DNA of 62,132 nt, the filler included. It is 7 parts of 7 records of this genome, joined end to end, with 100 filler letters (N's around TTAATTAATTAA, not from the genome) between each part and the next. Parts side by side here need not be neighbours in the genome. Positions count along the whole stretch, not along the records: positions 1 to 11,999 come from SRR20825010_2845; 6 more parts are not named here. One strand, 5' to 3'. The notes under the pieces are model-generated. The model was not told where the DNA came from, searched no databases, and worked only from the letters and a program-made list of their open reading frames with translations. This document shows, piece by piece, positions 1-11,999 of this stretch; positions within the stretch are counted from its first letter, which is position 1; each line of letters starts with the position of its first letter. Made by a program: the position numbers and the translations under genes.

Positions 1-1
1 C

Positions 2-1183
2 GTAACTACTTTCCTTACAGGTGCTATCTTATTTGCATTGGGTCAAGGACCAGTTAAAGGCTTCGCAATCGTATTGATGATTGGTATCGCTTCATCTTTC
101 TTCTCCTCAGTATTTATCACCAGAGTGATTGTAACATGGATGAGCAAAAAAGGAGACAACAGCTCTATTAGCTTTGCTACTCCTTTTGCTAAAAATGCAT
201 TAGGCGCAATGAACCTTGACTTCTTAGGCAAGCGTAAAATTGCTTACATTATCTCTACTTCGATTATTGTAATTGGTCTAGGTATCGCTGCTGTCAATGG
301 ATTGAAATTCGGCGTTGACTTTACAGGTGGTCGTTCCTACATCGTAGCATTCGATGAGCCAATGGCTGCTTCAGATTTGAAATCAGGTTTGGACAGTGAG
401 TTTGATGGATCTGTAGAAGTGAAAACTTACGGTTCTAATAACGTACTGAAAGTAACTACTTCTTACTTGGTAAATGAAGATGATGCTGCTTCGAATCTTG
501 AAGTAGAAAGTAAAGTAAAAGAAGGTATAGCTTCAGTGACAGGATTAACATTTACAGATGATGCTGTATCCCTAGCCGCTGGTCAATTCGCAATTACCGG
601 ATCTTCCAAAGTAGGTGCTACTGTAGCAGATGATATCAAAGCATCTTCAGCTGAAGCGATGATTGCTGCACTGGTTGCAATCTTCTTGTACATCTTATTG
701 AGATTCCGAAAGTGGCAGTTCTCTTTGGCATCTATCATTGCCTTGATTCACGATACCTTATTTGTTATTGCAGCCTTTGCTATTGCAAGTGCTTTTGGAG
801 CAACGTTCGAGATTGACCAAGTATTTATCGCTGCGGTACTTACTGTGATCGGTTACTCTATTAACGATACCGTGATTGTGTTTGACCGTATTCGTGAGAA
901 TATCGAAAATAGGGGTACTAACAAATTGGTAAAAGTATTTAATGACGCTATCAACCAGACCTTAGGCCGTACCTTGATTACTTCATTTACTACGTTAATT
1001 GTGGTGATTGTACTATTAATATTTGGTGGTGAAGTATTGAGAGGCTTCTCATTCGCACTATTCATTGGTGTGTTAGTAGGTACTTATTCTTCTATCTACA
1101 TAGCTACTCCAATTGTAGTGGATTTGATGAAAAGAGAATTAGATCAAGAGAATGCAGCTAAAGAAGCCAAAAAGCTTGCTTAA
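2..1183 (+). CDS. secDF: Protein translocase SecDF fusion, C-terminal part (5' truncated)
   Basis: SecD end (GPVKGFA) followed in frame by SecF motifs GVDFTGG, GYSINDTVIVFDRIRE, RTLITS, GTYSS. Confidence 0.97.
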   Translation, partial: VTTFLTGAILFALGQGPVKGFAIVLMIGIASSFFSSVFITRVIVTWMSKKGDNSSISFATPFAKNALGAMNLDFLGKRKIAYIISTSIIVIGLGIAAVNGLKFGVDFTGGRSYIVAFDEPMAASDLKSGLDSEFDGSVEVKTYGSNNVLKVTTSYLVNEDDAASNLEVESKVKEGIASVTGLTFTDDAVSLAAGQFAITGSSKVGATVADDIKASSAEAMIAALVAIFLYILLRFRKWQFSLASIIALIHDTLFVIAAFAIASAFGATFEIDQVFIAAVLTVIGYSINDTVIVFDRIRENIENRGTNKLVKVFNDAINQTLGRTLITSFTTLIVVIVLLIFGGEVLRGFSFALFIGVLVGTYSSIYIATPIVVDLMKRELDQENAAKEAKKLA

Positions 1184-1206
1184 ATAGCTATTCTCATTAA
1201 TTATTT

Positions 1207-1240
1207 AAAGGAGCGAGTGTCATACTCGCTCCTTTTTTTT
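1207..1240 (+). terminator. Intrinsic terminator of secDF
   Basis: GGAGCGAGT-gtcat-ACTCGCTCC hairpin followed by T8. Confidence 0.9.
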
Positions 1241-1328
1241 GCCTTATCGCAGATAAAATCCTTATCTTTTGGGGAATAATTTCTACAAGTTAATTCCATT
1301 ACACTAAATTTTATAAATATACTTTTCT

Positions 1329-1730
1329 ATGAAAATATCTAAAGAAGACTTCGAAGAGATGAAAGCGAAGTATGACAATGAAGTTAAAAAAGGCAAGCCA
1401 GGCAAAGGAAAGAATGGCAAAGACAAGGATAACCAGACCGGCTGGATATTTTTTGACAGGGCTACCTTGGAAAATTTATTGGCCAAATCTGACAACGATC
1501 CCAGTGTTGGTGGAATTCAATTTTATTTCACGCAGTACACCGAAGAAACTGCAGCAAAAGCATATCCTAATGAAGCGGCTGCCTATACAGGTCAGATGAC
1601 CTTAGTGATGCGGGCTGCAAATCTGAAGGATAATAAATTTGTGAAAATTGAATTAGGAGGAGAGGATGAATACCAAAATAATGGAGTTCAATGTCCGTAT
1701 CACTGTGAACCAGAACCTACTGATACTTAA
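1329..1730 (+). CDS. Small soluble hypothetical protein with C-terminal NGxxCPxxC motif; candidate signal-peptide precursor
   Basis: 133-aa ORF with ATG start, no signal peptide or TM segment, ends EDEYQNNGVQCPYHCEPEPTDT; first gene of a tightly packed cassette. Confidence 0.85.
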   Translation: MKISKEDFEEMKAKYDNEVKKGKPGKGKNGKDKDNQTGWIFFDRATLENLLAKSDNDPSVGGIQFYFTQYTEETAAKAYPNEAAAYTGQMTLVMRAANLKDNKFVKIELGGEDEYQNNGVQCPYHCEPEPTDT

Positions 1731-1732
1731 AA

Positions 1733-2518
1733 ATGGAGGCTAGATTTTTCGAAGCGTTTCTAATGCCGTATTTGGTTGTATTAGATACACTTTCATTAAC
1801 TGGAATCATCTATTTCTACATGTTGCCAAAGGAACAAAAAGCCAATACTAGTTATTGGCTTCCTTTGGTAATATTATTATTTACATGTTTTTTTGAAAAC
1901 ATGGGGGCCTATTGCAATTACAACACAGCATTCAATAAGGAAGTAAATGCTTTCTTTGGGAACACTGAGAATCCTAGATACAATCTGTGGTTGTACAACA
2001 TTGCCAACAAGCAAATCAGTACAATATTGTACCTGTTTTTAATAAAATCCTGGCTTAAACCCTCTAAAAAGAAATACATCAACTGGATGCTTGTGGTTTT
2101 TATAAGTGTCGCTTTTTATTTTCAAATCGCTGGTATAGAGCCTATTTATTCATTTCAGCCTATCATATTTGCAATAGGCGCGAATATGATGGTTATAGGC
2201 ATCGGACTTTATTTCATTGGGCTGATCACTGATGAAGCATTTCTAAATTCTAATCCGGTAAAGTTGATCTCCTTTTGGCAAATGACATTTCTGTTATTTA
2301 CCTATTCTTTATCCTACATTAATTCCATTGCATTGGAATTTTTTCTAACATTTAATGAAAATTTAGGCAGGTCTCTTTTACAAATTGATATTGTAATGGG
2401 GGTTTTAACTAAGATTATTCTTGTGCTTACACTAGTGTCACCAAACTTCCCGAAACTATTTGAGAGAGAGCCCTCCTCTATTGATAATAAAAACCTAGAG
2501 GGATTGATAGTTAGGTAA
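1733..2518 (+). CDS. Hypothetical ~7-TM membrane protein, paralog 1 (candidate stand-alone sensor)
   Basis: About seven hydrophobic segments by eye; 2-nt gap from the upstream ORF; clear similarity to 2521..3288. Confidence 0.85.
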   Translation: MEARFFEAFLMPYLVVLDTLSLTGIIYFYMLPKEQKANTSYWLPLVILLFTCFFENMGAYCNYNTAFNKEVNAFFGNTENPRYNLWLYNIANKQISTILYLFLIKSWLKPSKKKYINWMLVVFISVAFYFQIAGIEPIYSFQPIIFAIGANMMVIGIGLYFIGLITDEAFLNSNPVKLISFWQMTFLLFTYSLSYINSIALEFFLTFNENLGRSLLQIDIVMGVLTKIILVLTLVSPNFPKLFEREPSSIDNKNLEGLIVR

Positions 2519-2520
2519 AC

Positions 2521-3288
2521 ATGGATGAACGATTAATAAGGGCTTTATTTACAGCCTATCCTCTGAATACATTTCCACTATATCTGCTTCAGATCATAGG
2601 TGTCATTTGTTTTATTAAGCTGCCAAGAGAAAAAAAAGCAAATATTCATTATTTGCTTCCTTTTTTTATCTTGAGTTTTACTTTTTTTTATGAAACCTTG
2701 GGAGCGTACTTGAACTATAATCATGAACTCAAGTATGCAATAAATGCCTACTTGGGGAACACAGTATATCCAAAGTTCAATCTTTTCCTCTTTAATATAG
2801 CAAACAGGCAGATAGGTACCATACTATACTTAATTCTGATTAAGTCCTGGTTGCACCCTTCCAAAAAGAAATACATTACCTGGATGATTTATATATTCAT
2901 AGTCTTGGCATTAATTCTTCAAATTACTGGAATGGAACTCCTCTATTTGCAACAGCCTATTATTTTTAGCATTGGAGCAAATATGATACTAATTGCGAGT
3001 GGCATTTATTTCACAGGGCTGATGACACATAAAGCCTACTTAGATAGAAATCCTCTAAAACTGCTTTCATTTTGGCAGGTGACGAGTATGTTGTTCACCT
3101 ACACCTTAACATACATCAGTTCGGTGTCCTTAATTTATCTCTATGAAGTGAATCCAGTTTTAGGAAGAGCACTTTCGAATATTAATACTGTGATGACAAT
3201 TATCACTTTGGGAGTTTTAACGTTGATTATCGCCTCCCCGCTGCTACCTAATACCTTTGAAAAAGAACCTTTCTATGAATCCAACTGA
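2521..3288 (+). CDS. Hypothetical ~7-TM membrane protein, paralog 2
   Basis: Shares NIANxQIxTILYLxLIKSWLxPSKKKYIxWM, QPIIFxIGANM and NPxKLxSFWQ with 1733..2518. Confidence 0.85.
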   Translation: MDERLIRALFTAYPLNTFPLYLLQIIGVICFIKLPREKKANIHYLLPFFILSFTFFYETLGAYLNYNHELKYAINAYLGNTVYPKFNLFLFNIANRQIGTILYLILIKSWLHPSKKKYITWMIYIFIVLALILQITGMELLYLQQPIIFSIGANMILIASGIYFTGLMTHKAYLDRNPLKLLSFWQVTSMLFTYTLTYISSVSLIYLYEVNPVLGRALSNINTVMTIITLGVLTLIIASPLLPNTFEKEPFYESN

Positions 3289-4030
3289 AGATCAGATTTA
3301 CGTCATTATTTTTAGTACTCTTTTTTTAGGAGGCTTAATGTCCACCTTTGTGGTAGCAATGGTTTTTATCCACCGTCAGCGCCAAGCTCAAAATCGCCTG
3401 AAAATGGATCAGGTTAAGTCTGAGCATGAGAAGACTTTGCTGAATATTGAAAATGAGATCCAACAAGAAACCCTGACTCATATAGGTAGGGAGCTTCACG
3501 ACAATATTGGTCAGTTACTTTCGCTCGCCAAGCTCAATTTTGGATCAATAAAACCTGAAAAAATAGCCGAAGGAAGAGACATACTAGGTCAGGCAATACA
3601 AGAAGTACGTGGCTTGTCCAAGCAATTAAATCTAGATTGGGTGGAGTCCATCAGCATCAATGAATTCATCGAACAACAGTTGGAAAGAATACAGAATACA
3701 GGTTTTTGTCAGACTTCTCTGGAAGCAGATTTTGAACTTATAGAATTGCCTAAGGATCAAAAACTGGTGTTGATCCGTGTCATTCAAGAATCACTCAATA
3801 ATGCGATTAAGCATGCTTTTCCCGATAAGATCCAGATCAGGTTGCATGAAAATGGGATGAGAAAACAAATCTTAATCAAAGACAACGGTAAGGGATTTGA
3901 CTCATCTCAAAAATTAAATGGCAGTGGAATGTTCAATCTCAAGAAGAGAATGGAAACTATCGGCGGCGAATTTCACCTGACTTCAGCAGTCGGAAAAGGA
4001 ACAGAAATAACTTTAACCTTGCCAAATTAG
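3275..4030 (+). CDS. HisKA_3-type histidine kinase with one TM helix and no sensor domain
   Basis: H-box RELHDNIGQLL, N-box QESLNNAIKHA, G-boxes DNGKGF and GSGM; ATG at 3275 overlaps the upstream gene by 14 nt. Confidence 0.95.
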   Translation: MNPTEDQIYVIIFSTLFLGGLMSTFVVAMVFIHRQRQAQNRLKMDQVKSEHEKTLLNIENEIQQETLTHIGRELHDNIGQLLSLAKLNFGSIKPEKIAEGRDILGQAIQEVRGLSKQLNLDWVESISINEFIEQQLERIQNTGFCQTSLEADFELIELPKDQKLVLIRVIQESLNNAIKHAFPDKIQIRLHENGMRKQILIKDNGKGFDSSQKLNGSGMFNLKKRMETIGGEFHLTSAVGKGTEITLTLPN

Positions 4031-4079
4031 ATTTTAGGGTATAATTTGAAGTTTAATCTCCCCAAATTATTAACCTTAA

Positions 4080-4712
4080 ATGCGCATGATCAGGATTGCC
4101 CTGGCTGACGACCACAAGCTATTTGCAAAAGGAATAGAAGGAATTCTAGAAGATGAGGATGACCTACTCGTCGTTGGTGTCTTTCCAAACGGAAGAGAGC
4201 TTTGTGATTACTTAGCAGATAATGAGATTGATATAGTCCTCACTGACCTTAACATGCCTATTATGGATGGTTTTGGCGTGTTAGATCATTGCAAAGAAGC
4301 ACACCCACATTTGAAGGTTGTTGTTCTCTCCATGTATGATGAGGAAAAAATTTACAAAAAATGCATCAATCAAAAAGCCGATGCTTTTATACTCAAAGAC
4401 GCTGATCCAGATGAATTGATATTTACCATTCATGAAGTTTATGAAGGTAGACACGTTTTGAATTTTGATCGAGTCAAAAAACAAGCTTTGCAAGGCGCCT
4501 ATTTTGACGCATTTCGAATGAAGTATAAACTTTCCCGCCGTGAAACAGAAATCATCCAACTAATCCGGGAAGGAATTCAAAACAAAAGTATCGCTGAAAT
4601 GCTTAATCTAAGCAAACAGACCGTCGAAACGCATCGTAAAAATATCCACCAGAAACTTCAAGTTAGTTCTCGAATTGAGCTAGTGAACAAGGCACATGAA
4701 ATGAACTTATAA
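4080..4712 (+). CDS. NarL/LuxR-family response regulator
   Basis: REC domain (ADDH, DLNMP, LSM, K) plus LuxR HTH LSRRETEII...TVETHRKNI. Confidence 0.96.
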   Translation: MRMIRIALADDHKLFAKGIEGILEDEDDLLVVGVFPNGRELCDYLADNEIDIVLTDLNMPIMDGFGVLDHCKEAHPHLKVVVLSMYDEEKIYKKCINQKADAFILKDADPDELIFTIHEVYEGRHVLNFDRVKKQALQGAYFDAFRMKYKLSRRETEIIQLIREGIQNKSIAEMLNLSKQTVETHRKNIHQKLQVSSRIELVNKAHEMNL

Positions 4713-4714
4713 TT

Positions 4715-5761
4715 ATGAGCAATCCCATTAAGACAGCCATCGTAGGCTTCGGTTCTGTAGCTGAAAAAATGCATGCACCCCTGATAGCAGTATGTCCAGA
4801 CCTTGATCTGGTAGCATCAGTGGAACGTCGCACTAATCGTTGCGAAGAGATATATTCTGGAGTAACTACATACAGAAGCTTAGATGAATTGCTTGCTGCA
4901 GAGGTGGCTGAGCTCATCGTGATCACCACCCCAAATGAGTTTCACTTCCCTATGGCAATGCAGTGCTTGAATGCTGGAAAGCATGTGGTGGTAGATAAGC
5001 CGGTCACGATTTTCTCTCATGAAGCCGAAGAGCTAAATAAGCTAGCTAGTGAGAAAGGCTTGGTTTGTTCTGTCTTTCACAACCGTCGATACGATGGGGA
5101 TTTCATGACCTTGCAAAAGTTGGTTCGAGAAGGAGATCTTGGAGATCTCGTATATCTGGAATCTCATTTTGACCGCTTCCGTCCAGATGTTTCGGAGAAT
5201 TGGAGAGAAAAGGAAGTCCCTGGCAATGGTATCACCTATGATCTTGGGGCTCATTTGATCGATCAAGTAGTATTGCTTTTTGGTCTACCAAACTGGATTC
5301 AGGCGGACATCCGCAAGCAAAGAACTGGTGCTGTGGCTGACGATTACTTTGACATTACCATGGACTACGGCACTCTTAAAGCTAAGGTGACCGCAGGAGC
5401 TTTAGTGAATGTACCTACTCCAAAGTTTTTGCTTTTGGGTAAAAATGGATCTTACCAAAAGTTCGGTTTGGATGTACAAGAAGCAGAGTTCAAGCTGGGA
5501 CATAAGCCAGAAGGCGCAAGTTGGGGTGTGGAAACTGAGGAGAAGTGGGGGAAAATTTTCCTCAGTGAGGAAACGAAAGCTTATGAGACCATCCCAGGAA
5601 ATTACAGAATTCTATACCAAAATGTCGCAGATGCTATTTCAAAAGGCACTTCACTAGACATCACCATTCCACAGACCATCAGCGTTTTGAAGATTATAGA
5701 GGCATCTTTTAAAAGTGCAGAAGAGAAACGCACCATTTCAAAAGCAGAAGGAAATTGGTAA
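4715..5761 (+). CDS. Gfo/Idh/MocA oxidoreductase (YhhX/YdgJ/IolW-like)
   Basis: IVGFG Rossmann start, HVVVDKP, FHNRRYDGDF, YDLGAHLIDQ. Confidence 0.92.
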   Translation: MSNPIKTAIVGFGSVAEKMHAPLIAVCPDLDLVASVERRTNRCEEIYSGVTTYRSLDELLAAEVAELIVITTPNEFHFPMAMQCLNAGKHVVVDKPVTIFSHEAEELNKLASEKGLVCSVFHNRRYDGDFMTLQKLVREGDLGDLVYLESHFDRFRPDVSENWREKEVPGNGITYDLGAHLIDQVVLLFGLPNWIQADIRKQRTGAVADDYFDITMDYGTLKAKVTAGALVNVPTPKFLLLGKNGSYQKFGLDVQEAEFKLGHKPEGASWGVETEEKWGKIFLSEETKAYETIPGNYRILYQNVADAISKGTSLDITIPQTISVLKIIEASFKSAEEKRTISKAEGNW

Positions 5762-5766
5762 TAATT

Positions 5767-5774
5767 TAAGTTTG
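5767..5774 (+). promoter_or_regulatory. Bacteroidota -7 promoter element
   Basis: TAAGTTTG matches TAnnTTTG, 42 nt upstream of the ATG at 5817. Confidence 0.5.
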
Positions 5775-5816
5775 GCTCTTTTTTGGGGTAAGGGATTAGA
5801 AATAATTAAATCCACC

Positions 5817-6254
5817 ATGAAAAAAGTATTCTTATTAGCATTTGCTCTTTTTGCTTTTATATCGATTTCTCAAGCTCAAGTAGCTGTAGGTATCAACTTC
5901 CAGAGTTCTGATACTTTTATCACCGTAGGAACTGACCCGAACAATGAATTCTTCGGAGAAGCTAGACTGGGCATCGGCCACGACATCGGGCTAGAATTGA
6001 TGGGAGCCTATAATTTCGTTAGAAAAAGTGAAGTGAATGCCTACGTAGGCGCAGGTCTGGGCTTATTAGGAGATCATCATCACAAGCACCATGATGACCA
6101 CAACGATATTTACGTGGCAATTCCAATAGGCGTATTGATTACTCCATTTAATACTAAAAACTTGGGCTTTTTAGTAGAAGCCGCACCGGTATTTGCAAAT
6201 CACAATGACAGTTACCTCAGAGGCGGTGTCGGCGTGAAATATACCTTTAGATAG
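5817..6254 (+). CDS. Small outer-membrane beta-barrel protein with a His-rich loop
   Basis: Signal peptide MKKVFLLAFALFAFISISQA, alternating beta strands, C-terminal GVKYTF(R), loop DHHHKHHDDHND. Confidence 0.75.
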   Translation: MKKVFLLAFALFAFISISQAQVAVGINFQSSDTFITVGTDPNNEFFGEARLGIGHDIGLELMGAYNFVRKSEVNAYVGAGLGLLGDHHHKHHDDHNDIYVAIPIGVLITPFNTKNLGFLVEAAPVFANHNDSYLRGGVGVKYTFR

Positions 6255-6269
6255 ATCAAATTTACCATT

Positions 6270-6316
6270 AACCCAAAAAATGTCAACTCAGTTATTGAGT
6301 TGACATTTTTTGGGTT
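6270..6316. terminator. Bidirectional terminator between convergent genes
   Basis: Perfect 21-bp inverted repeat AACCCAAAAAATGTCAACTCA with a 5-nt loop. Confidence 0.85.
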
Positions 6317-6326
6317 TAAGCTTTTT

Positions 6327-7007
6327 TTACTTATTGTTTAGGAAAAAAGAAACTCCCAGATAGATTGCTGAGGTATTTAAACCAAACTCAAAAGAATTAT
6401 TACTGTAGTCTGCAATGGTGGTTTCTTGGTTGGAGCTTGTAAAAGTCGCAAGATTAGTAGACAGCTCTATTGCCATCCAATTTTTAGGGAAGTAAGCGAT
6501 TCCTGCTAAAAGTCTGGTCTCATACTCAGTGTAGTTGACCTCATTTTCTGAAGGACTGCCATTATTATATTCATACATGGACGTATTTTTATTTTTCAGC
6601 GCCCCACTATTTAACTCCCCAAATGCTGAAAATTTATCACCAAATGGAAAATACTTTCTAGCAAACAAGCCTGCACCAAATGCATTTTGCTCATTGGTAA
6701 GTCTTTCCTTACTAGAGTTTGTGCTGCTGTAAGTGGTAGCATCCATTATACTTTTACCAGTTTTAAATCTAACCATAGCACCTATAACCCAATTATTTTC
6801 CAAGGCAACACCAACCTTAGGGTCAAAGGAGAACTCATTGGATGTCGTATTTCTATCACTGCCTAAATCCGAAGTCCTTTGCTGATCATTATTGCTATTA
6901 GCGAAGTTGATGCTTCCACCGAGCAAAACACTGCCTTTTTGTATCTGAGCAATTGCTGCAAAAGTGAAGCACTGAAACACGAGTAATACAAGTAATAATC
7001 TTTTCAT
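6327..7007 (-). CDS. Outer-membrane beta-barrel protein
   Basis: Signal peptide, QIQKGSVLLGGS start typical of Bacteroidota barrels, C-terminal LGVSFFL. Confidence 0.8.
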   Translation of the reverse strand: MKRLLLVLLVFQCFTFAAIAQIQKGSVLLGGSINFANSNNDQQRTSDLGSDRNTTSNEFSFDPKVGVALENNWVIGAMVRFKTGKSIMDATTYSSTNSSKERLTNEQNAFGAGLFARKYFPFGDKFSAFGELNSGALKNKNTSMYEYNNGSPSENEVNYTEYETRLLAGIAYFPKNWMAIELSTNLATFTSSNQETTIADYSNNSFEFGLNTSAIYLGVSFFLNNK

Positions 7008-7123
7008 GGGTAGACCTTTTAGTTAGTTTAAATCTTACACGGTCCTGTGAACTATTTAGTTGTAATAAATTTTATAGAAACCTGAAGACTTTCATTTTTC
7101 TGCGGGTATTCATGCATTTTCCT

Positions 7124-7131
7124 TAATTTTG
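7124..7131 (+). promoter_or_regulatory. Bacteroidota -7 promoter element of glyQS
   Basis: TAATTTTG ends 5 nt before the ATG at 7137. Confidence 0.65.
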
Positions 7132-7136
7132 CCGCT

Positions 7137-8603
7137 ATGGCAAAAACTGAAACTCCTGCGGAAAACGCGCAACTGAAAGATATTATTTCCCATGCCAAAG
7201 AGTATGGATTTGTATACCCTAGTTCTGAGATCTATGACGGCCTTCAGGCTGTTTATGATTATGGTGCATATGGTGTTGAGTTGAAAAACAACTTGAAGCG
7301 TCTGTGGTGGGAAACCATGACTCGCGTACAAGACAATATTGTAGGTATAGACGCATCGATTTTTATGCATCCTACTACTTGGAAAGCTTCTGGACACATA
7401 GATAGCTTTAATGATCCGATGATCGACAACAAGGACTCTAAGAAGCGTTACCGTGCAGATGTGCTGGTAGAAGAATATGCAGCCGTGTTCGAAAGAGCTG
7501 GAGATATAGAAAGAGCAAATGCATTGACAGGTACTTTGGCGAGATTGCTGGAAGCAGAAGATCTAGCTGGCGTGAGAGATTTGATTACTAACGAAGGCAT
7601 CAAATGTCCTATCAGCGGCACATCCAACTGGACAGATGTTCGTCAGTTCAACTTGATGTTCTCTACCCAAGTAGGTTCTGTGGCAGAAGACTCTACCACG
7701 ATTTACCTGAGACCTGAGACTGCTCAGGGTATTTTTGTCAACTTCCTTAACGTGCAGAAAACTGCCAGAATGAAAGTTCCTTTTGGAATCGCTCAGATCG
7801 GTAAAGCCTTCAGAAATGAAATCGTTGCACGTCAATTTATCTTCAGAATGCGTGAGTTTGAGCAGATGGAGATGCAATTTTTCGTACGTCCTGGCACTGA
7901 GCTGGAATGGTATCAGAACTGGGCAGATACGAGAATGAAATGGCATTTGGCTTTGGGTATTCCTGCCGAAAAGCTCAGAAAACATAACCATGAGAAGCTT
8001 GCTCACTATGCAAATGCGGCCATGGATATTGAGTTTGATTTCCCTTTTGGCTTCAAAGAAGTGGAAGGAATCCATTCCAGAACTGATTTTGATTTGAAAT
8101 CACATCAGGAATTCTCCAGAAAGAAGCAACAGTATTTCGATCCAGAAGTGAATCAGAACTACATCCCTTATGTAGTGGAGACTTCTATCGGAGCAGATCG
8201 TTTGTTCTTATTGACACTTTGCAATGCCTACACGGAAGAGAAAACCGAGGAGAAAAGCAGAACCTACTTAAAACTTCATCCAGCGATCGCTCCTGTGAAA
8301 GCAGCTATACTTCCAATCACGAAGAAAGATGGCTTGCCAGAAAAAGGAAAAGAGATTGTTGAGTTGCTGAAATATGATTTCAACATTATCTATGAAGATG
8401 CATCTTCTATTGGTAAGCGATACGCACGTCAGGATCTGATCGGGACGCCATTCTGTATCGCTGTTGATCATCAGACACTAGAAGACAATACTGTGACTAT
8501 TCGTCATCGTGATACTACTGAGCAGGAAAGAGTACCTATCTCTGAACTTCACGGTAGAATCTCTGAAGCGACTAGCTTCAGAAGGATCTTTGAGAAGCTT
8601 TAA
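7137..8603 (+). CDS. glyQS: Glycine--tRNA ligase (homodimeric alpha2 type)
   Basis: YLRPETAQGIF, FRNEI, FIFRMREFEQMEMQFF, anticodon-binding domain SIGKRYARQD. Confidence 0.98.
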   Translation: MAKTETPAENAQLKDIISHAKEYGFVYPSSEIYDGLQAVYDYGAYGVELKNNLKRLWWETMTRVQDNIVGIDASIFMHPTTWKASGHIDSFNDPMIDNKDSKKRYRADVLVEEYAAVFERAGDIERANALTGTLARLLEAEDLAGVRDLITNEGIKCPISGTSNWTDVRQFNLMFSTQVGSVAEDSTTIYLRPETAQGIFVNFLNVQKTARMKVPFGIAQIGKAFRNEIVARQFIFRMREFEQMEMQFFVRPGTELEWYQNWADTRMKWHLALGIPAEKLRKHNHEKLAHYANAAMDIEFDFPFGFKEVEGIHSRTDFDLKSHQEFSRKKQQYFDPEVNQNYIPYVVETSIGADRLFLLTLCNAYTEEKTEEKSRTYLKLHPAIAPVKAAILPITKKDGLPEKGKEIVELLKYDFNIIYEDASSIGKRYARQDLIGTPFCIAVDHQTLEDNTVTIRHRDTTEQERVPISELHGRISEATSFRRIFEKL

Positions 8604-8622
8604 TATCTCACCAAAAAAAATA

Positions 8623-8651
8623 GCCCCCAAAAGATTGAATCTTTTGGGGGC
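8623..8651. terminator. Bidirectional terminator
   Basis: GCCCCCAAAAGAT/ATCTTTTGGGGGC inverted repeat between convergent genes, flanked by A/T tracts. Confidence 0.85.
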
Positions 8652-8674
8652 ATTTATTTTCACTTTATTTTTTA

Positions 8675-9466
8675 TTACCTACAAGCTTCTGTAATAGTCG
8701 CAAGGTCACCTTTTTTAGATACTTCATTTACTTTGAAATCAGTCCAAACATTGCTATTTGGAGACTGTCCAGAACAGTTAGGTGCTAAATCTACTGTCCA
8801 AGTATAGACCTGACAAGCGACTAAATCCATTGTTTTTTGGCGAGTAACTCCCTTGGTTGACCAGGTATCAAGACCTGTAACTGCCACACCTTGGGCAAAA
8901 GTAAATACCAATTCCGCTGCTGGCATGCTCTCAGAAGGGATGTAAGTGAATGTGTATGGCTCTAAATCACCCTTGTCAACGTAAGAGAAACTTTCCTGAC
9001 AAGTGCCACAATTCTCAACTTCTACAGTGAATTCAACATTTTGTTGTCCACCTTGTCCACTTACTTTCCATCTGAAAGTGTATGTTCCTACCGCATAACC
9101 TGAAAGTGACCCGCTAACTCCTTTAGGAGCTTGTGCCTGCTGAAATACCTGTATCCACTCGCCATCAACTAACTGTTGTAATTGAACTGTACGCGTTCCT
9201 GTGAAACCCGTACCACCGAAACTGAAAGTAATGTTATCACCAACACAAACTGTTTCAGTATAATTTAAATTGAAATTACCACTTGTGGAGAGTCTGGCAT
9301 TCTCGTTTGAAGCAGATCCAAAAGCGTTGAGCTTAAAGCCGGCTTGTTCTGACTTTGCAAGGTCAGTAAGAAGGTCTTCATTTTCGTAGGTAGCTAATTG
9401 GCTACAGGCTCCTAAGAGCAATGCCGACGTCACTAACGCCAACATTTTGGTTGTAAAAATTTTCAT
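8675..9466 (-). CDS. Hypothetical beta-rich (Ig-like) lipoprotein
   Basis: Start MKIFTTK at 9466, lipobox LLGAC, Thr/Gly/Ser-rich strands, several Cys. Confidence 0.7.
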   Translation of the reverse strand: MKIFTTKMLALVTSALLLGACSQLATYENEDLLTDLAKSEQAGFKLNAFGSASNENARLSTSGNFNLNYTETVCVGDNITFSFGGTGFTGTRTVQLQQLVDGEWIQVFQQAQAPKGVSGSLSGYAVGTYTFRWKVSGQGGQQNVEFTVEVENCGTCQESFSYVDKGDLEPYTFTYIPSESMPAAELVFTFAQGVAVTGLDTWSTKGVTRQKTMDLVACQVYTWTVDLAPNCSGQSPNSNVWTDFKVNEVSKKGDLATITEACR

Positions 9467-10015
9467 AGATGTATAAAATTTTAGATTTATGATGGAATAT
9501 AAATGTTTTTCAAACACATATTAACGTTGTTAAAAACATTTTTATAAAAATATTGTAATCAGGTACTCATTTAATACAACCTTTAAGAGCTAAATCTTCT
9601 TAAAACCTAATTTATGACCGACTAATTATTTAAAAACCATAAGAATCAGTAGTTAACCTACTATTGATACAGCTAGCATTTAAGGCATTAATAACTATAA
9701 CAACGATGTTTTGAGACCATTCATCTTCTCGATTGAACTCTAATAAAGAGCTATTTAGGTATAAACCATAGGGAAACTAGACTAGGATCTTTTTTCGTAT
9801 CAACAAAACCGAAATCAAGCTTAAAGCTTAAAAAAATAAAATATAATTATTTGATGTTTTCAAAAGTTACAATACCTACTAACACCTTTATGTAATTAGC
9901 GATTTGGGTGAGCACTTAGCGAGAGTTGAAAAACAGTCACAATCCAATTTCTCATTTTATTGTCCTTCAAGAAAAAAGTATCGCTGATACTTATATTTAA
10001 AAGAACTTTCAAAAG

Positions 10016-10059
10016 GCATAAAAAAACTCCTGAGAAAGATCTCAGGAGTTTTTTTATGC
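10016..10059 (-). terminator. Intrinsic terminator
   Basis: GCATAAAAAAACTCCTGAGA/TCTCAGGAGTTTTTTTATGC inverted repeat just downstream of 10068..10409. Confidence 0.85.
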
Positions 10060-10067
10060 ATACGCAC

Positions 10068-10409
10068 TTATTGTTTTTCCCAAATAGAATCATCCTTTTC
10101 ATAGCGAAGAGTGCCGTCATCTTTATATTTGAAAGTCAATTCCATTCCAAATTGATCACTTTCTTCAATCTTGATTTTCTGTCCTTTAATCTTATAGGAG
10201 GTTCTAGAAATAATGTCACCACCAAGTAAAACGTCGGCTACTCCTCCGGCAGAAAGTGTGATAAATCTTCCGCAGCCATACATTGGGTCAGCAACTGTAT
10301 CGCATCCATCTAGCGTATTCGTGTAAGTTCCCAAGATTTCCGGTTCGTCTAATTTGTCACAAGAAATAAAAACAAGTGCGACAAGCGCAAGTAGGAATAA
10401 GTTTTTCAT
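10068..10409 (-). CDS. Hypothetical lipoprotein
   Basis: Signal peptide with lipobox FISC followed by an acidic stretch. Confidence 0.75.
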   Translation of the reverse strand: MKNLFLLALVALVFISCDKLDEPEILGTYTNTLDGCDTVADPMYGCGRFITLSAGGVADVLLGGDIISRTSYKIKGQKIKIEESDQFGMELTFKYKDDGTLRYEKDDSIWEKQ

Positions 10410-10513
10410 AAAAAAGAAGTTAGGTATAACACATATACGAATGTGAGCTAACGATTGCTACAACGAGGCTAACATTTTCAAAAAATGCTAGTTTAGCGTA
10501 TGAATAGAAATTC

Positions 10514-11980
10514 ATGACAAAGAAAGCACTCATCATAGGTTCAGGTATTGCAGGCATTGCTTCGGCTATTCGATTGGCAGTAAAAGGGTACCAAGTCGAG
10601 GTTTTTGAAGCCAATTCCTACCCTGGTGGAAAGCTCTCAGAAATCCAAATTGGAGATTATCGCTTTGATGCTGGACCATCTCTTTTCACGCTTCCCGAAC
10701 AAGTAGATGAGCTTTTTCGCTTAGCGGGAAAAAATCCGAAGGATTACTTTGCGTATGACAAGCTGAATGTCGCCTGCAAATATTTTTGGGAAGACGGAAC
10801 CAGATTAAATGCATATGCTGATCTTGATCTTTTTGCTGAAGAAGTTCAAAGTAAGCTTGGAGAACCTGCAACAACTATCCGAAAAGCTCTGCGGCAATCC
10901 GCTTTTATATATGATAGTCTAGCACCACTCTTTATGAACCGCTCACTTCATAAGCTAGACACCTGGACAAATCCTCATGCACTAAAATCCTACCTGAGGA
11001 TGGGAAAGCTTGGGATTTTTTCCACCATGGACGAAGCAAATCAGAAGCAATTCACTCATCCAAAGTTGGTACAACTCTTCAATCGCTACGCGACTTACAA
11101 TGGCTCAAATCCTTTCGAGACTCCAGCTACTCTGAATATTATTCCTCATCTGGAATTTAATATTGGCGCATTTTTCCCTAAAAAAGGCATGCATGACATC
11201 ACGCAGAGCTTGTTCAAACTGTCAGAAGAACTTGGGGTGACTTATCATTTTGGGCAGAAAGTCGATAAGGTCTTAGTAGAAAATGGAAAAGCGAAAGGCT
11301 TACGAGTTAAAGGTCAAGATCACTATGCTGACCTCGTGGTGAACAATATGGATATGGTCAATGCCTATAAGACCATCCTCAAGGAAGAGAAGCAGCCCAA
11401 GCTTTTACTCAACCAACCCAAATCGAGTTCTGCGCTGATTTTCTATTGGGGAATTAAGCGTGACTTTCCTGAGCTGGATCTTCACAATATTTTCTTTACT
11501 GACAATTACCCCTTGGAATTTGAGCATATTTTCAAGAAAGGAACCATTTATGATGATCCTACTATCTATGTAAATATAACCTCTACTCATAAGTCTGACG
11601 ATGCTCCAGCGGGATGCATGAATTGGTTTACGATGATCAATGTGCCCAATAACCAAGGGCAAGATTGGGATCAGATGATTACAGAAGCAAAAAGGAATAT
11701 CATACATAAGCTGAATAGAATTCTCAAAACTGATGTAGAACCCTTGATTGAAGCAGAGGAAATCCTAGATCCAAGGACTATTGAATCTAAAACATCCAGT
11801 GCGCAAGGTGCTCTTTATGGCAATAGCTCAAACAATAAGTTTGCAGCTTTTCTTCGTCATGCAAATTATTCCTCCTCGATAAAAAATCTCTACTTCTGTG
11901 GAGGATCTGTGCACCCTGGAGGAGGGATTCCTCTTTGCTTACTTTCAGCGAAAATTATGAGTGAAATGATTGAAGGATAA
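10514..11980 (+). CDS. crtD: CrtI-family desaturase, likely 1-hydroxycarotenoid 3,4-desaturase
   Basis: GSGIAG FAD motif, FDAGPSLFT, RYATYNGS, GALYGNSSN, GGSVHPGGGIPL. Confidence 0.88.
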   Translation: MTKKALIIGSGIAGIASAIRLAVKGYQVEVFEANSYPGGKLSEIQIGDYRFDAGPSLFTLPEQVDELFRLAGKNPKDYFAYDKLNVACKYFWEDGTRLNAYADLDLFAEEVQSKLGEPATTIRKALRQSAFIYDSLAPLFMNRSLHKLDTWTNPHALKSYLRMGKLGIFSTMDEANQKQFTHPKLVQLFNRYATYNGSNPFETPATLNIIPHLEFNIGAFFPKKGMHDITQSLFKLSEELGVTYHFGQKVDKVLVENGKAKGLRVKGQDHYADLVVNNMDMVNAYKTILKEEKQPKLLLNQPKSSSALIFYWGIKRDFPELDLHNIFFTDNYPLEFEHIFKKGTIYDDPTIYVNITSTHKSDDAPAGCMNWFTMINVPNNQGQDWDQMITEAKRNIIHKLNRILKTDVEPLIEAEEILDPRTIESKTSSAQGALYGNSSNNKFAAFLRHANYSSSIKNLYFCGGSVHPGGGIPLCLLSAKIMSEMIEG

Positions 11981-11999
11981 ACAGCAGTGATCAGTAGTC

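Follow-up and report, generated by a model that had tools for sequence, protein, structure and literature searches.

A 133-residue protein heading a Bacteroidota two-component gene module is most likely a folded subunit and not a peptide-signal precursor

The window (the whole stretch of DNA analyzed here, 62,132 nucleotides [nt], filler included) consists of seven parts of seven records of one genome, joined with 100 filler letters between parts; positions 1 to 11,999 come from record SRR20825010_2845. At 1329..1730 on the plus strand it carries a gene for a protein of 133 amino acids (aa), which an earlier note had read as a possible precursor of a disulfide-cyclized signal peptide. Our analysis indicates that the protein is most likely a folded subunit and not such a precursor. 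The explanation that we favor, with a probability of about one half, is that it serves as an accessory subunit, with a Cys-bracketed Pro-Pro hook through which it engages the G protein-coupled receptor (GPCR)-like seven-transmembrane (7TM) sensor of a histidine kinase that has no sensor of its own. The module would comprise this small alpha/beta protein, one or more stand-alone 7TM proteins, a HisKA_3 kinase, and a NarL-type response regulator. Most likely the 7TM proteins perceive the stimulus, and the small protein would bind its 7TM partner and thereby modulate the kinase. The hook would serve as the contact element, a Pro-Pro turn that in the lineage of the window protein is bracketed by two cysteines; these may staple or gate the turn via a disulfide, a metal, or packing, and would not define a released peptide. 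The cytoplasmic face would be its site of action, since no export signal is present in the window lineage. Most likely, we are dealing with an undescribed four-gene sensing system, built of uncatalogued parts, that is present in many Bacteroidota.

The core genes of the module follow each other closely on the same strand:

1329..1730, plus strand: 133-aa small-protein gene (stop codon included), with an ATG start, at the head of the module
1733..2518, plus strand: 7TM partner A, 261 aa, beginning 2 nt past the stop of the small gene
2521..3288, plus strand: 7TM partner B, 255 aa, a paralogue of A with 51% identity
3257..4030, plus strand: histidine kinase with HisKA_3 and HATPase_c domains and one N-terminal transmembrane (TM) helix, overlapping the end of partner B
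4080..4712, plus strand: NarL/LuxR-type response regulator with Response_reg and GerE domains

From the small gene to an oxidoreductase gene past the regulator gene, the intervals are 2 nt, 2 nt, an overlap, 49 nt, and 2 nt. The kinase has its TM helix at residues 16 to 34, HisKA_3 at residues 75 to 124, and HATPase_c at residues 171 to 256, with no sensor domain of its own and no HAMP match.

The four genes travel together over Bacteroidota. A word-index search gave a close set of 128 homologues with an expect value (E) of ≤0.01 among 139 candidates, and all the named ones belong to Algoriphagus or Cyclobacterium. Of 122 close small genes, 112 have a recognizable 7TM gene next on the same strand (median gap, 6 nt; typically 2 to 9 nt), and at the seeming exceptions in Lunatimonas a 6-7TM open reading frame (ORF) still lies directly downstream. 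The small gene is translationally coupled to the 7TM gene and is at times duplicated with it in tandem, either as a pair (e.g., loci L011, L023, and L026) or as a triplet that includes the kinase gene (L002, L003, and L075). At the orthologous locus in other Cyclobacteriaceae genera, SecDF retains about 80% identity and the kinase and regulator about 50 to 55%, while the small and membrane proteins retain about 25 to 35%. A profile search of the GTDB family found matches in 71 of 301 genomes (37 of 132 genera); a broader profile, run on a sample of the Bacteroidota phylum, found them in 46 of 401 genomes (27 of 179 genera), spread over at least 12 GTDB families and including other classes, with none in several large families (0 of 87, 0 of 61, and 0 of 22 genomes). 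We fetched 53 remote loci, which hold 59 copies of the small protein. A multi-TM gene (150 to 330 aa) is adjacent at 49 of them, a kinase homologue is present at 47, a regulator at 44, and all three at 42; of the 11 loci that lack a part, several are truncated at the end of a contig or region. Not one of the 53 loci lies beside secDF, and the linkage is therefore not merely inherited synteny; it persists at a sequence identity of about 22 to 32% in a broad alignment. The Pfam threshold was reached by none of 23 remote small proteins and none of 7 remote partners. No phage copy of the small protein was found by tblastn in 50,697 phage records or in viral contigs with two subfamily profiles.

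The link of the small protein to a membrane/kinase complex is thus strongly supported by gene linkage at close and remote loci, in agreement with the earlier note, which had tied the protein to two-component genes and membrane proteins. Its statement that CPxxC proteins recur beside two-component genes turned out to be right, and more widely so than expected. Could the small protein still be functionally separate, a stress protein or a regulated product that is co-transcribed with the module and conserved by operon structure alone? Binding is a prediction, many loci have several 7TM genes for a single small gene, and 3 of 13 remote family-level copies (L112, L114, and L117) have no recognizable module genes alongside. 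Such a separate role would nevertheless have to account for the presence of all parts at 42 of the 53 remote loci, at such low identity and in differing neighborhoods, as well as for the short gaps and the co-duplication at close loci. It would also have to account for a partial Mantel correlation of 0.42 between small-protein and 7TM-protein distances once the kinase (species) signal is taken out, a value that none of 999 permutations reached. We regard functional separation as very unlikely.

The small protein can be divided into five segments, for which we give a proxy of the ratio of nonsynonymous to synonymous change (dN/dS) where one was obtained:

1329..1436, plus strand: residues 1 to 36, N-terminal helix (residues 5 to 19) and Lys/Gly-rich segment; dN/dS proxy, 0.12; predicted local distance difference test score (pLDDT), about 79 to 92
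1437..1628, plus strand: residues 37 to 100, alpha/beta core (QTxW.FF.R..LE..L, GGIQFYF, Y.G..TLV); dN/dS proxy, 0.07
1629..1670, plus strand: residues 101 to 114, acidic, variable, indel-rich loop or linker; dN/dS proxy, 0.32
1671..1706, plus strand: residues 115 to 126, hook Y-x-N-x-G-x-x-C-P-Y-x-C; dN/dS proxy at the fixed positions, 0.01
1707..1727, plus strand: residues 127 to 133, EPEPTDT after the second Cys, found in some lineages only

The basic description given in the earlier note was accurate. The reading frame is real, and the protein reads WIFFDRATLENLL, GGIQFYF, GQMTLVM, GGEDEY, and NNGVQCPYHCEPEPTDT, as quoted there. Its only cysteines, C122 and C126, both lie in the tail, with C-x3-C spacing (C-P-Y-H-C), unlike the CxxC of thioredoxin-like proteins. 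There is no Sec/Tat signal, and no hydrophobic segment was found in the 133 aa. The stop-to-stop frame has 137 codons, only 4 of them 5′ of the ATG, and therefore a hidden signal peptide has no room in the window protein. In the close set, none of 39 upstream extensions of at least 15 codons combined a Met with a hydrophobic stretch (GTG and TTG starts were not examined), and none of the 122 close copies showed an export signal.

The fold argues that the chain is one unit. AlphaFold2, run with an alignment of 35 sequences, modeled the whole protein as a single confident domain (pLDDT, 85.9; predicted template modeling score, 0.79), with helices at residues 5 to 19, 44 to 51, 72 to 78, and 83 to 86 and strands at residues 39 to 41, 61 to 69, 90 to 100, 103 to 106, and 120 to 122. 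The last of these strands implies that the start of the tail belongs to the sheet. Three methods found no structural neighbor in the PDB (best Foldseek E, 1.2); Foldseek against viral models gave a best E of 0.51. A sequence profile against the PDB reached a best E of 0.24, and we treated its rows for ribosomal eS25 and sortase as chance.

The pattern of selection points in the same direction. We used a Nei-Gojobori-type count over 25 independent close pairs, in which the class of variable tail positions comprises 3 codons and has low power. The N terminus and the core are under strong purifying selection. The variable tail positions gave a proxy of 0.35 and the stretch after the second Cys 0.21. 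The variable tail positions are no faster than the linker, and there is therefore no sign of the diversifying selection expected of pherotypes; they appear relaxed, like the linker, and not diversifying. Mean entropy is 2.98 bits in linker residues 101 to 114 versus 1.6 bits in the core, G62 of the core is invariant over the broad family, and residues 1 to 36 are unusually conserved in Algoriphagus, yet not in remote relatives.

The tail motif is conserved far beyond chance, and no element of the small protein is more conserved than this hook. We counted it in 108 loci from named genomes, with 128 ORF matches of which 123 are near full length; the 5 left out are fragments, contig-end pieces, and one ORF across a run of N's. 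CPxxC is present in all 123 near-full-length copies. Counting back from the first Cys, Asn is found at position −5 in 99 copies and Gly at position −3 in 116, and position −4 is Gly in 40. The residue after C-P is Pro in 98, Tyr in 19, Phe in 5, and His in 1; the family form of the hook is N-x-G-x-x-C-P-P-x-C, with Pro, Tyr, or Phe after C-P in nearly all close copies. Between 0 and 24 residues (median, 2) follow the second Cys. Positions 120, 121, and 125 lie in the 94th to 99th percentile of variability, and residue 118, between N117 and G119, varies as well (Gly in 33% of sequences). The alignment thus has the pattern that the earlier note predicted, with invariant or nearly invariant Cys, Pro, Gly, and Asn around hypervariable positions.

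That pattern is what makes a precursor attractive: the domain would be a leader, and the tail would be cut near N-x-G, exported as a disulfide-cyclized peptide, and sensed by the 7TM protein and the kinase. The variable acidic linker before the tail, the fast-evolving, multicopy 7TM partners, and the N-G-G-x-x-C of many remote copies, which recalls a double-glycine cleavage site, all suit it. The rest of the evidence does not. The supposed leader is a strongly constrained folded domain of 100 residues, which speaks against the leader or autoprocessing role proposed for the core in the earlier note, and the variable tail positions behave like the linker. Cleavage at a labile Asn-Gly bond is not supported, as neither that bond nor a Gly-Gly pair is conserved, and up to 24 residues may follow the motif. 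In exported relatives the signal sits before the whole domain, and therefore the whole protein is exported and not a tail. Remote tails, described below, often keep the motif with no Cys at all, which disagrees with cyclization through a disulfide. The partner has no conserved catalytic set. As the earlier note had observed, the cassette encodes no protease, exporter, or modifying enzyme: the small gene is followed by two 7TM genes, the kinase, the regulator, a GFO_IDH_MocA oxidoreductase, and a small protein. Nor did the ORF maps of the loci, in which neighbors are tagged only by similarity to the window proteins and by hydrophobic segments, show a peptidase or transporter gene at any constant position. 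A released peptide thus has hardly any probability left, and this attractive but unsupported reading as a cyclic peptide pheromone is corrected ahead of any outlay on peptidomics.

What do the cysteines do, if they do not close a peptide ring? In the broad alignment (26 sequences; mean identity, 29%), only M1, G62, G119, C122, P123, and C126 are invariant. The 59 remote tails are more diverse: 31 read C-P-x-x-C, 23 are Cys-less and read N-x-G-x(2-3)-P-P, 2 combine another Cys pair with P-P, and 3 are of other types. Common to the family is N-x-G and then a Pro-Pro turn, which is bracketed by Cys in some lineages only. The Cys-less tails argue for a structural or docking role of the hook and for thiol chemistry as an elaboration that is not the mechanism of the whole family. 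This also bears on the alternative raised in the earlier note, an intracellular Cys sensor that signals to the membrane complex. Signaling to the membrane complex comes close to our preferred explanation; redox or metal sensing as the common mechanism does not agree with the Cys-less relatives.

A thiol redox or soft-metal sensor deserves consideration in its own right. The C-x3-C pair would perceive the stimulus, as a disulfide or by binding Cu(I), Zn, or an Fe-S cluster, possibly together with a Cys and a juxtamembrane His of the kinase, and the folded domain would relay the state of the pair to the kinase complex. No position of the Cys-bearing lineages is more conserved than the two cysteines, which are invariant in 123 of 123 close copies. 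The kinase orthologues have a single Cys, between the dimerization and histidine phosphotransfer (DHp) domain and the ATPase domain, which is invariant in 104 of 104, as is the His by the membrane helix. C-P-x-x-C followed by Pro also resembles what we take to be the CxxxC copper site of Sco proteins. The 23 Cys-less remote copies nevertheless keep N-x-G...P-P, the partner, and the kinase, and neither the small protein nor the partner offers another conserved Cys, His, or Met to complete a metal site. No structural match of any kind linked the small protein to a thioredoxin-like or Sco-like fold, and a His-rich loop in a protein encoded downstream is not conserved. We consider a sensor of this kind unlikely.

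The presumed partner of the small protein is a seven-helix bundle. The 50 best structural matches to it comprise only 7TM receptors, rhodopsins, and related 7TM folds, with two designed soluble GPCR-like folds at the head, and its resemblance to eukaryotic and microbial 7TM receptors (GPCRs and rhodopsins) is at the level of the fold only. Remote and window partners are homologous (hhalign, 96.4%; E, 1.3e−9; 182 columns). The partners have no family in Pfam/NCBIfam, PHROGs, or PADLOC, and no conserved Cys or His or catalytic set of the Ser-His type was found in them. Identity with Per1, which came up in 11 of 29 members at an E of 0.0049, below the cut-off, was rejected, as the partner lacks a conserved His, unlike a CREST/Per1-type hydrolase. 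Pfam HisKA_7TM, the UniRef label of one partner homologue, matched none of 29 close members and 7 remote partners. Longer fused forms of the partner were absent from 8,000 candidates, which is weak evidence. The public name "histidine kinase" on the 7TM neighbor is not supported by any domain match.

Across Algoriphagus species the 7TM genes stand in tandem arrays of 1 to 5 genes (window positions 1733-3288; L004, L010, L019, L030, L039, and L058). Two of the five 7TM genes of L019 are split over two frames. A single intact small gene is the rule among these loci; there are two in L010, and L019 and L039 have a second small-gene match, which in L019 is a fragment. It looks as if the receptor paralogues that feed one kinase turn over rapidly.

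Covariation offers a hint at where the two proteins might touch. At loci with two pairs, paralogue matching by the small protein and by the partner agreed in 31 of 45 locus-pair comparisons. By mutual information with average product correction, the 10 best pairs all involve partner residues 4 to 7. Tail residues 118, 120, 121, and 125 covary best with partner residues 4 to 8 (mean z, 3.2 to 5.8 for residues 4, 6, 7, and 8 and 1.8 for residue 5), while other equally variable columns reached at most 2.4, except residue 250 (3.1). In the subset with CPPxC only, partner residue 8 is still at the top. We take this covariation as a lead toward a possible contact between the hook and the N terminus of the partner.

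Several observations weigh against a subunit that contacts its partner from the cytoplasm. The measures of coevolution are confounded by shared ancestry, by paralogue subfamilies, and, as regards the covariation of the tail with the N terminus of the partner, by the proximity of the two segments on the DNA (within about 50 nt). Loci with one small gene carry 1 to 5 7TM genes, and this surplus means that a strict 1:1 complex is not required. The most conserved loops of the partner (N72, G76, N77, P81, N84, and N89; E136, Q142, and P143) and its N terminus are predicted to be periplasmic by the positive-inside rule (12 Lys or Arg residues in the cytoplasmic loops and the C-terminal tail versus 5 in the periplasmic loops). 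The predicted topology of the partner is alike for exported and signal-less small proteins, as judged by a crude and noisy predictor. The 59 remote copies include 10 with a lipoprotein signal, 1 with a Sec-type signal, and 8 with an N-terminal anchor (19 in total), a share that is inflated because the second batch of remote loci was picked partly for long open frames. In a quick maximum-likelihood tree, with good support for 10 of its 64 branches, the exported or anchored copies lie scattered; no fewer than 4 changes are required, and the tree as drawn needs 12. Lipoprotein copies occur inside a signal-less clade with 95% support and inside the 12-row clade of the window protein itself. The scattered export signals and the periplasmic loops of the partner fit a periplasmic site better than a cytoplasmic one, and a model of action at the cytoplasmic face does not explain how a single tail motif and a single partner can go with two compartments.

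Given this two-compartment distribution, the main rival is action in the periplasm or outside the cell, which we see as a possibility, albeit an unlikely one. The small protein would then be an extracytoplasmic ligand or cosensor at the periplasmic face of the 7TM protein, with the Cys pair forming a disulfide across the Pro-Pro turn, and the signal-less forms would cross the membrane by a leaderless route or become available after lysis, as a cue of damage to kin. The mode of action would resemble that of RcsF-IgaA-RcsCDB or NlpE-CpxA. The lipoprotein, Sec-type, and anchored copies speak for it, as do the well-supported clades that lipoprotein and signal-less copies share, the tail motif and homologous partners common to both, and the periplasmic placement of the partner's invariant polar residues and of its best-covarying N-terminal helix. 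One exported copy (L127) moreover has a Cys-rich extension typical of secreted proteins. A periplasmic role is harder to square with the window protein, which has neither a signal peptide nor room for one, with the 39 close-set extensions that hide no signal, and with a module that has no exporter. The Cys counts in the signal-less close clade (122 copies) are 2 in 89, 3 in 28, and 4 in 5. The third Cys of the 28 would be unpaired, and the lack of a bias toward even numbers fits a reducing compartment, in which, by the Cys-parity rule, no such bias is reportedly expected. In L144b and L149 the anchors are positive only after the helix, which in our reading keeps the domain in the cytoplasm. 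The inflated share of exported copies also tempers the case.

Two of the lipoproteins, L143 (3149, minus-strand frame) and L152 (3081, plus-strand frame), have two tandem small domains per chain. The L143 protein ends in CPPLC, and its gene comes after the 7TM gene; the L152 protein has a PPP tail without Cys.

A bolder idea, which we think quite unlikely as a whole, would accommodate both compartments: a widespread, undescribed Bacteroidota receptor system in which a GPCR-like 7TM protein is operated via the Pro-Pro hook by its cognate small protein, whose fold has no detectable structural neighbor, and signals to the sensor-less kinase, with the small protein having moved repeatedly between cytoplasm and periplasm. 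If so, the receptor would be addressable from both faces, or the leaderless forms would be latent ligands that become active on leaving the cell and on oxidation of the Cys pair. In the latter case they would constitute a self-damage or redox alarm made of protein and not of a small molecule.

Returning to the accessory subunit as our preferred reading, how does the module compare with known systems? Sensor-less kinases that depend on a partner are known mainly from Bacillota and Enterobacteria. LiaFSR and VraTSR are accessory-protein-dependent, intramembrane-sensing two-component systems of Bacillota. They share with the window module a HisKA_3 kinase without an extracytoplasmic sensor, a NarL-type regulator, and one or more adjacent conserved accessory membrane proteins that give or gate the input. 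The NCBIfam LiaS model matches the window kinase with an E of 2e−15, far below the cut-off of the model. The accessories here, a 7TM protein of GPCR-like type and a soluble protein of 133 aa, are unrelated to those of LiaFSR and VraTSR, and neither has a Pfam or NCBIfam family. The kinase also differs in having one helix and no HAMP match, the phylum is another one, and nothing points to envelope stress as the stimulus. With a kinase that has no sensor domain and an adjacent membrane gene at 112 of 122 close and 49 of 53 remote loci, the module would by analogy belong functionally with the accessory-protein-dependent two-component systems, and control of the kinase by the accessory is predicted.

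The RcsF-IgaA-RcsC/D-RcsB and NlpE-CpxA systems of Enterobacteria offer a second comparison. In them, as proposed for the window module, a protein of about 130 aa with functionally important cysteines works via a multipass inner membrane protein to control a kinase relay with a NarL-type regulator at its end. The exported lipoprotein relatives of the window family would be comparable in topology, and for exported relatives the module would also belong in function with these systems. There is no similarity in sequence or fold (no Pfam match at an E of ≤1), the window protein has no lipoprotein signal, and a 7TM bundle takes the place of IgaA. Agr-type peptide quorum sensing comprises the precursor AgrD, the membrane peptidase AgrB, the kinase AgrC, and the regulator AgrA. 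The gene order (small Cys protein, multipass membrane protein, kinase, and regulator) and a motif with variable positions are alike. The window protein, in contrast, is three times as large as AgrD, forms a folded domain, and is under purifying selection throughout; its membrane protein lacks a conserved catalytic Cys or His, its kinase lacks a multipass sensor, and it has relatives that are Cys-less or exported as whole domains. The tethered C-terminal docking pentapeptide of the Tar and Tsr chemoreceptors (PMC7390727) is comparable in that a short conserved motif behind a variable linker would dock a signaling partner; motif, carrier, and presumed partner differ, and in the model of the window protein the hook packs in part against its own domain (strand 120 to 122).

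Bacteroidota matter in oceans, soils, and guts, and few kinase inputs of this kind are understood there. Our work places a "hypothetical" 133-aa protein, mislabeled DnaK, at the head of a four-gene module whose two input proteins both lie outside the catalogued families, one without a neighbor in the PDB and the other resembling a seven-helix receptor. The hook N-x-G-x-x-C-P-P-x-C and its natural Cys-less and lipoprotein variants would provide a mutable handle on signaling from 7TM protein to kinase, and the family raises the question of how near relatives of one protein come to be on opposite sides of the membrane.

A scan of 1.84 billion representatives with the single sequence returned 26 clusters at an E of ≤0.001, two of which contain long "homologues" (1,166 and 4,541 aa) that are repeat-protein artifacts; matches in a protein atlas are to unnamed Bacteroidota clusters only. 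Pfam, NCBIfam, PHROGs, and PADLOC contain no family for the small protein, with no match in Pfam or NCBIfam even at an E of ≤1. The public name "molecular chaperone DnaK" on many members of 120 to 135 aa is best treated as an annotation error, since the protein has only 133 aa and matches no HSP70 domain at an E of ≤1. A literature search found no description of the small-protein family or of the four-gene module, and the passages found in the Lipocone paper (PMC12419801) were irrelevant. Contigs with an Algoriphagus-type locus occur in metagenome-assembled genomes labeled Planctomycetota, Limnohabitans, or Reyranella (L026, L051, L057, L064 to L066, and L074) and are most likely misbinned. 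An apparent fusion of the first 77 residues of the small protein to a 7TM protein (L051, 5211-6250) is an artifact of an ORF that spans a run of 100 N's. L085 (about 7268-7612) and L105 (about 6703-7038) have extra small genes on the opposite strand inside the module, with at least 20 residues after CPPxC.

The remaining features of the transcription unit flank the core module:

1207..1235, plus strand: terminator-like hairpin and T-run after secDF, with a 13-pair stem including 6 GC pairs (consensus scan)
4715..5761, plus strand: GFO_IDH_MocA oxidoreductase gene, 2 nt past the regulator gene
5715-6254, plus strand: gene for a small signal-peptide-bearing protein without a Pfam family and with a His-rich stretch (GDHHHKHHDDHND), the putative end of the operon

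Synteny of the GFO_IDH_MocA gene is confined to Cyclobacteriaceae, and the gene was not tagged at the remote loci; the oxidoreductase is probably a neighbor or a target outside the core module. The His-rich loop of the last protein, which is of the outer membrane type, was discarded as a clue to a metal, as only 22 of 64 orthologues have at least 5 His residues there and others have stretches rich in Asp/Arg/Asn or Tyr/Arg in its place. The TTG start listed for the kinase overlaps partner B by 32 nt, and an ATG a few codons on would shorten the overlap. The hairpin at 1207..1235 marks the upstream boundary of the transcription unit. Within 1100-6400, the consensus scan found one other plus-strand terminator-like site with a stem of more than 5 pairs, at 6270-6316, and a 5-pair site at 1215-1231 falls within the hairpin itself.

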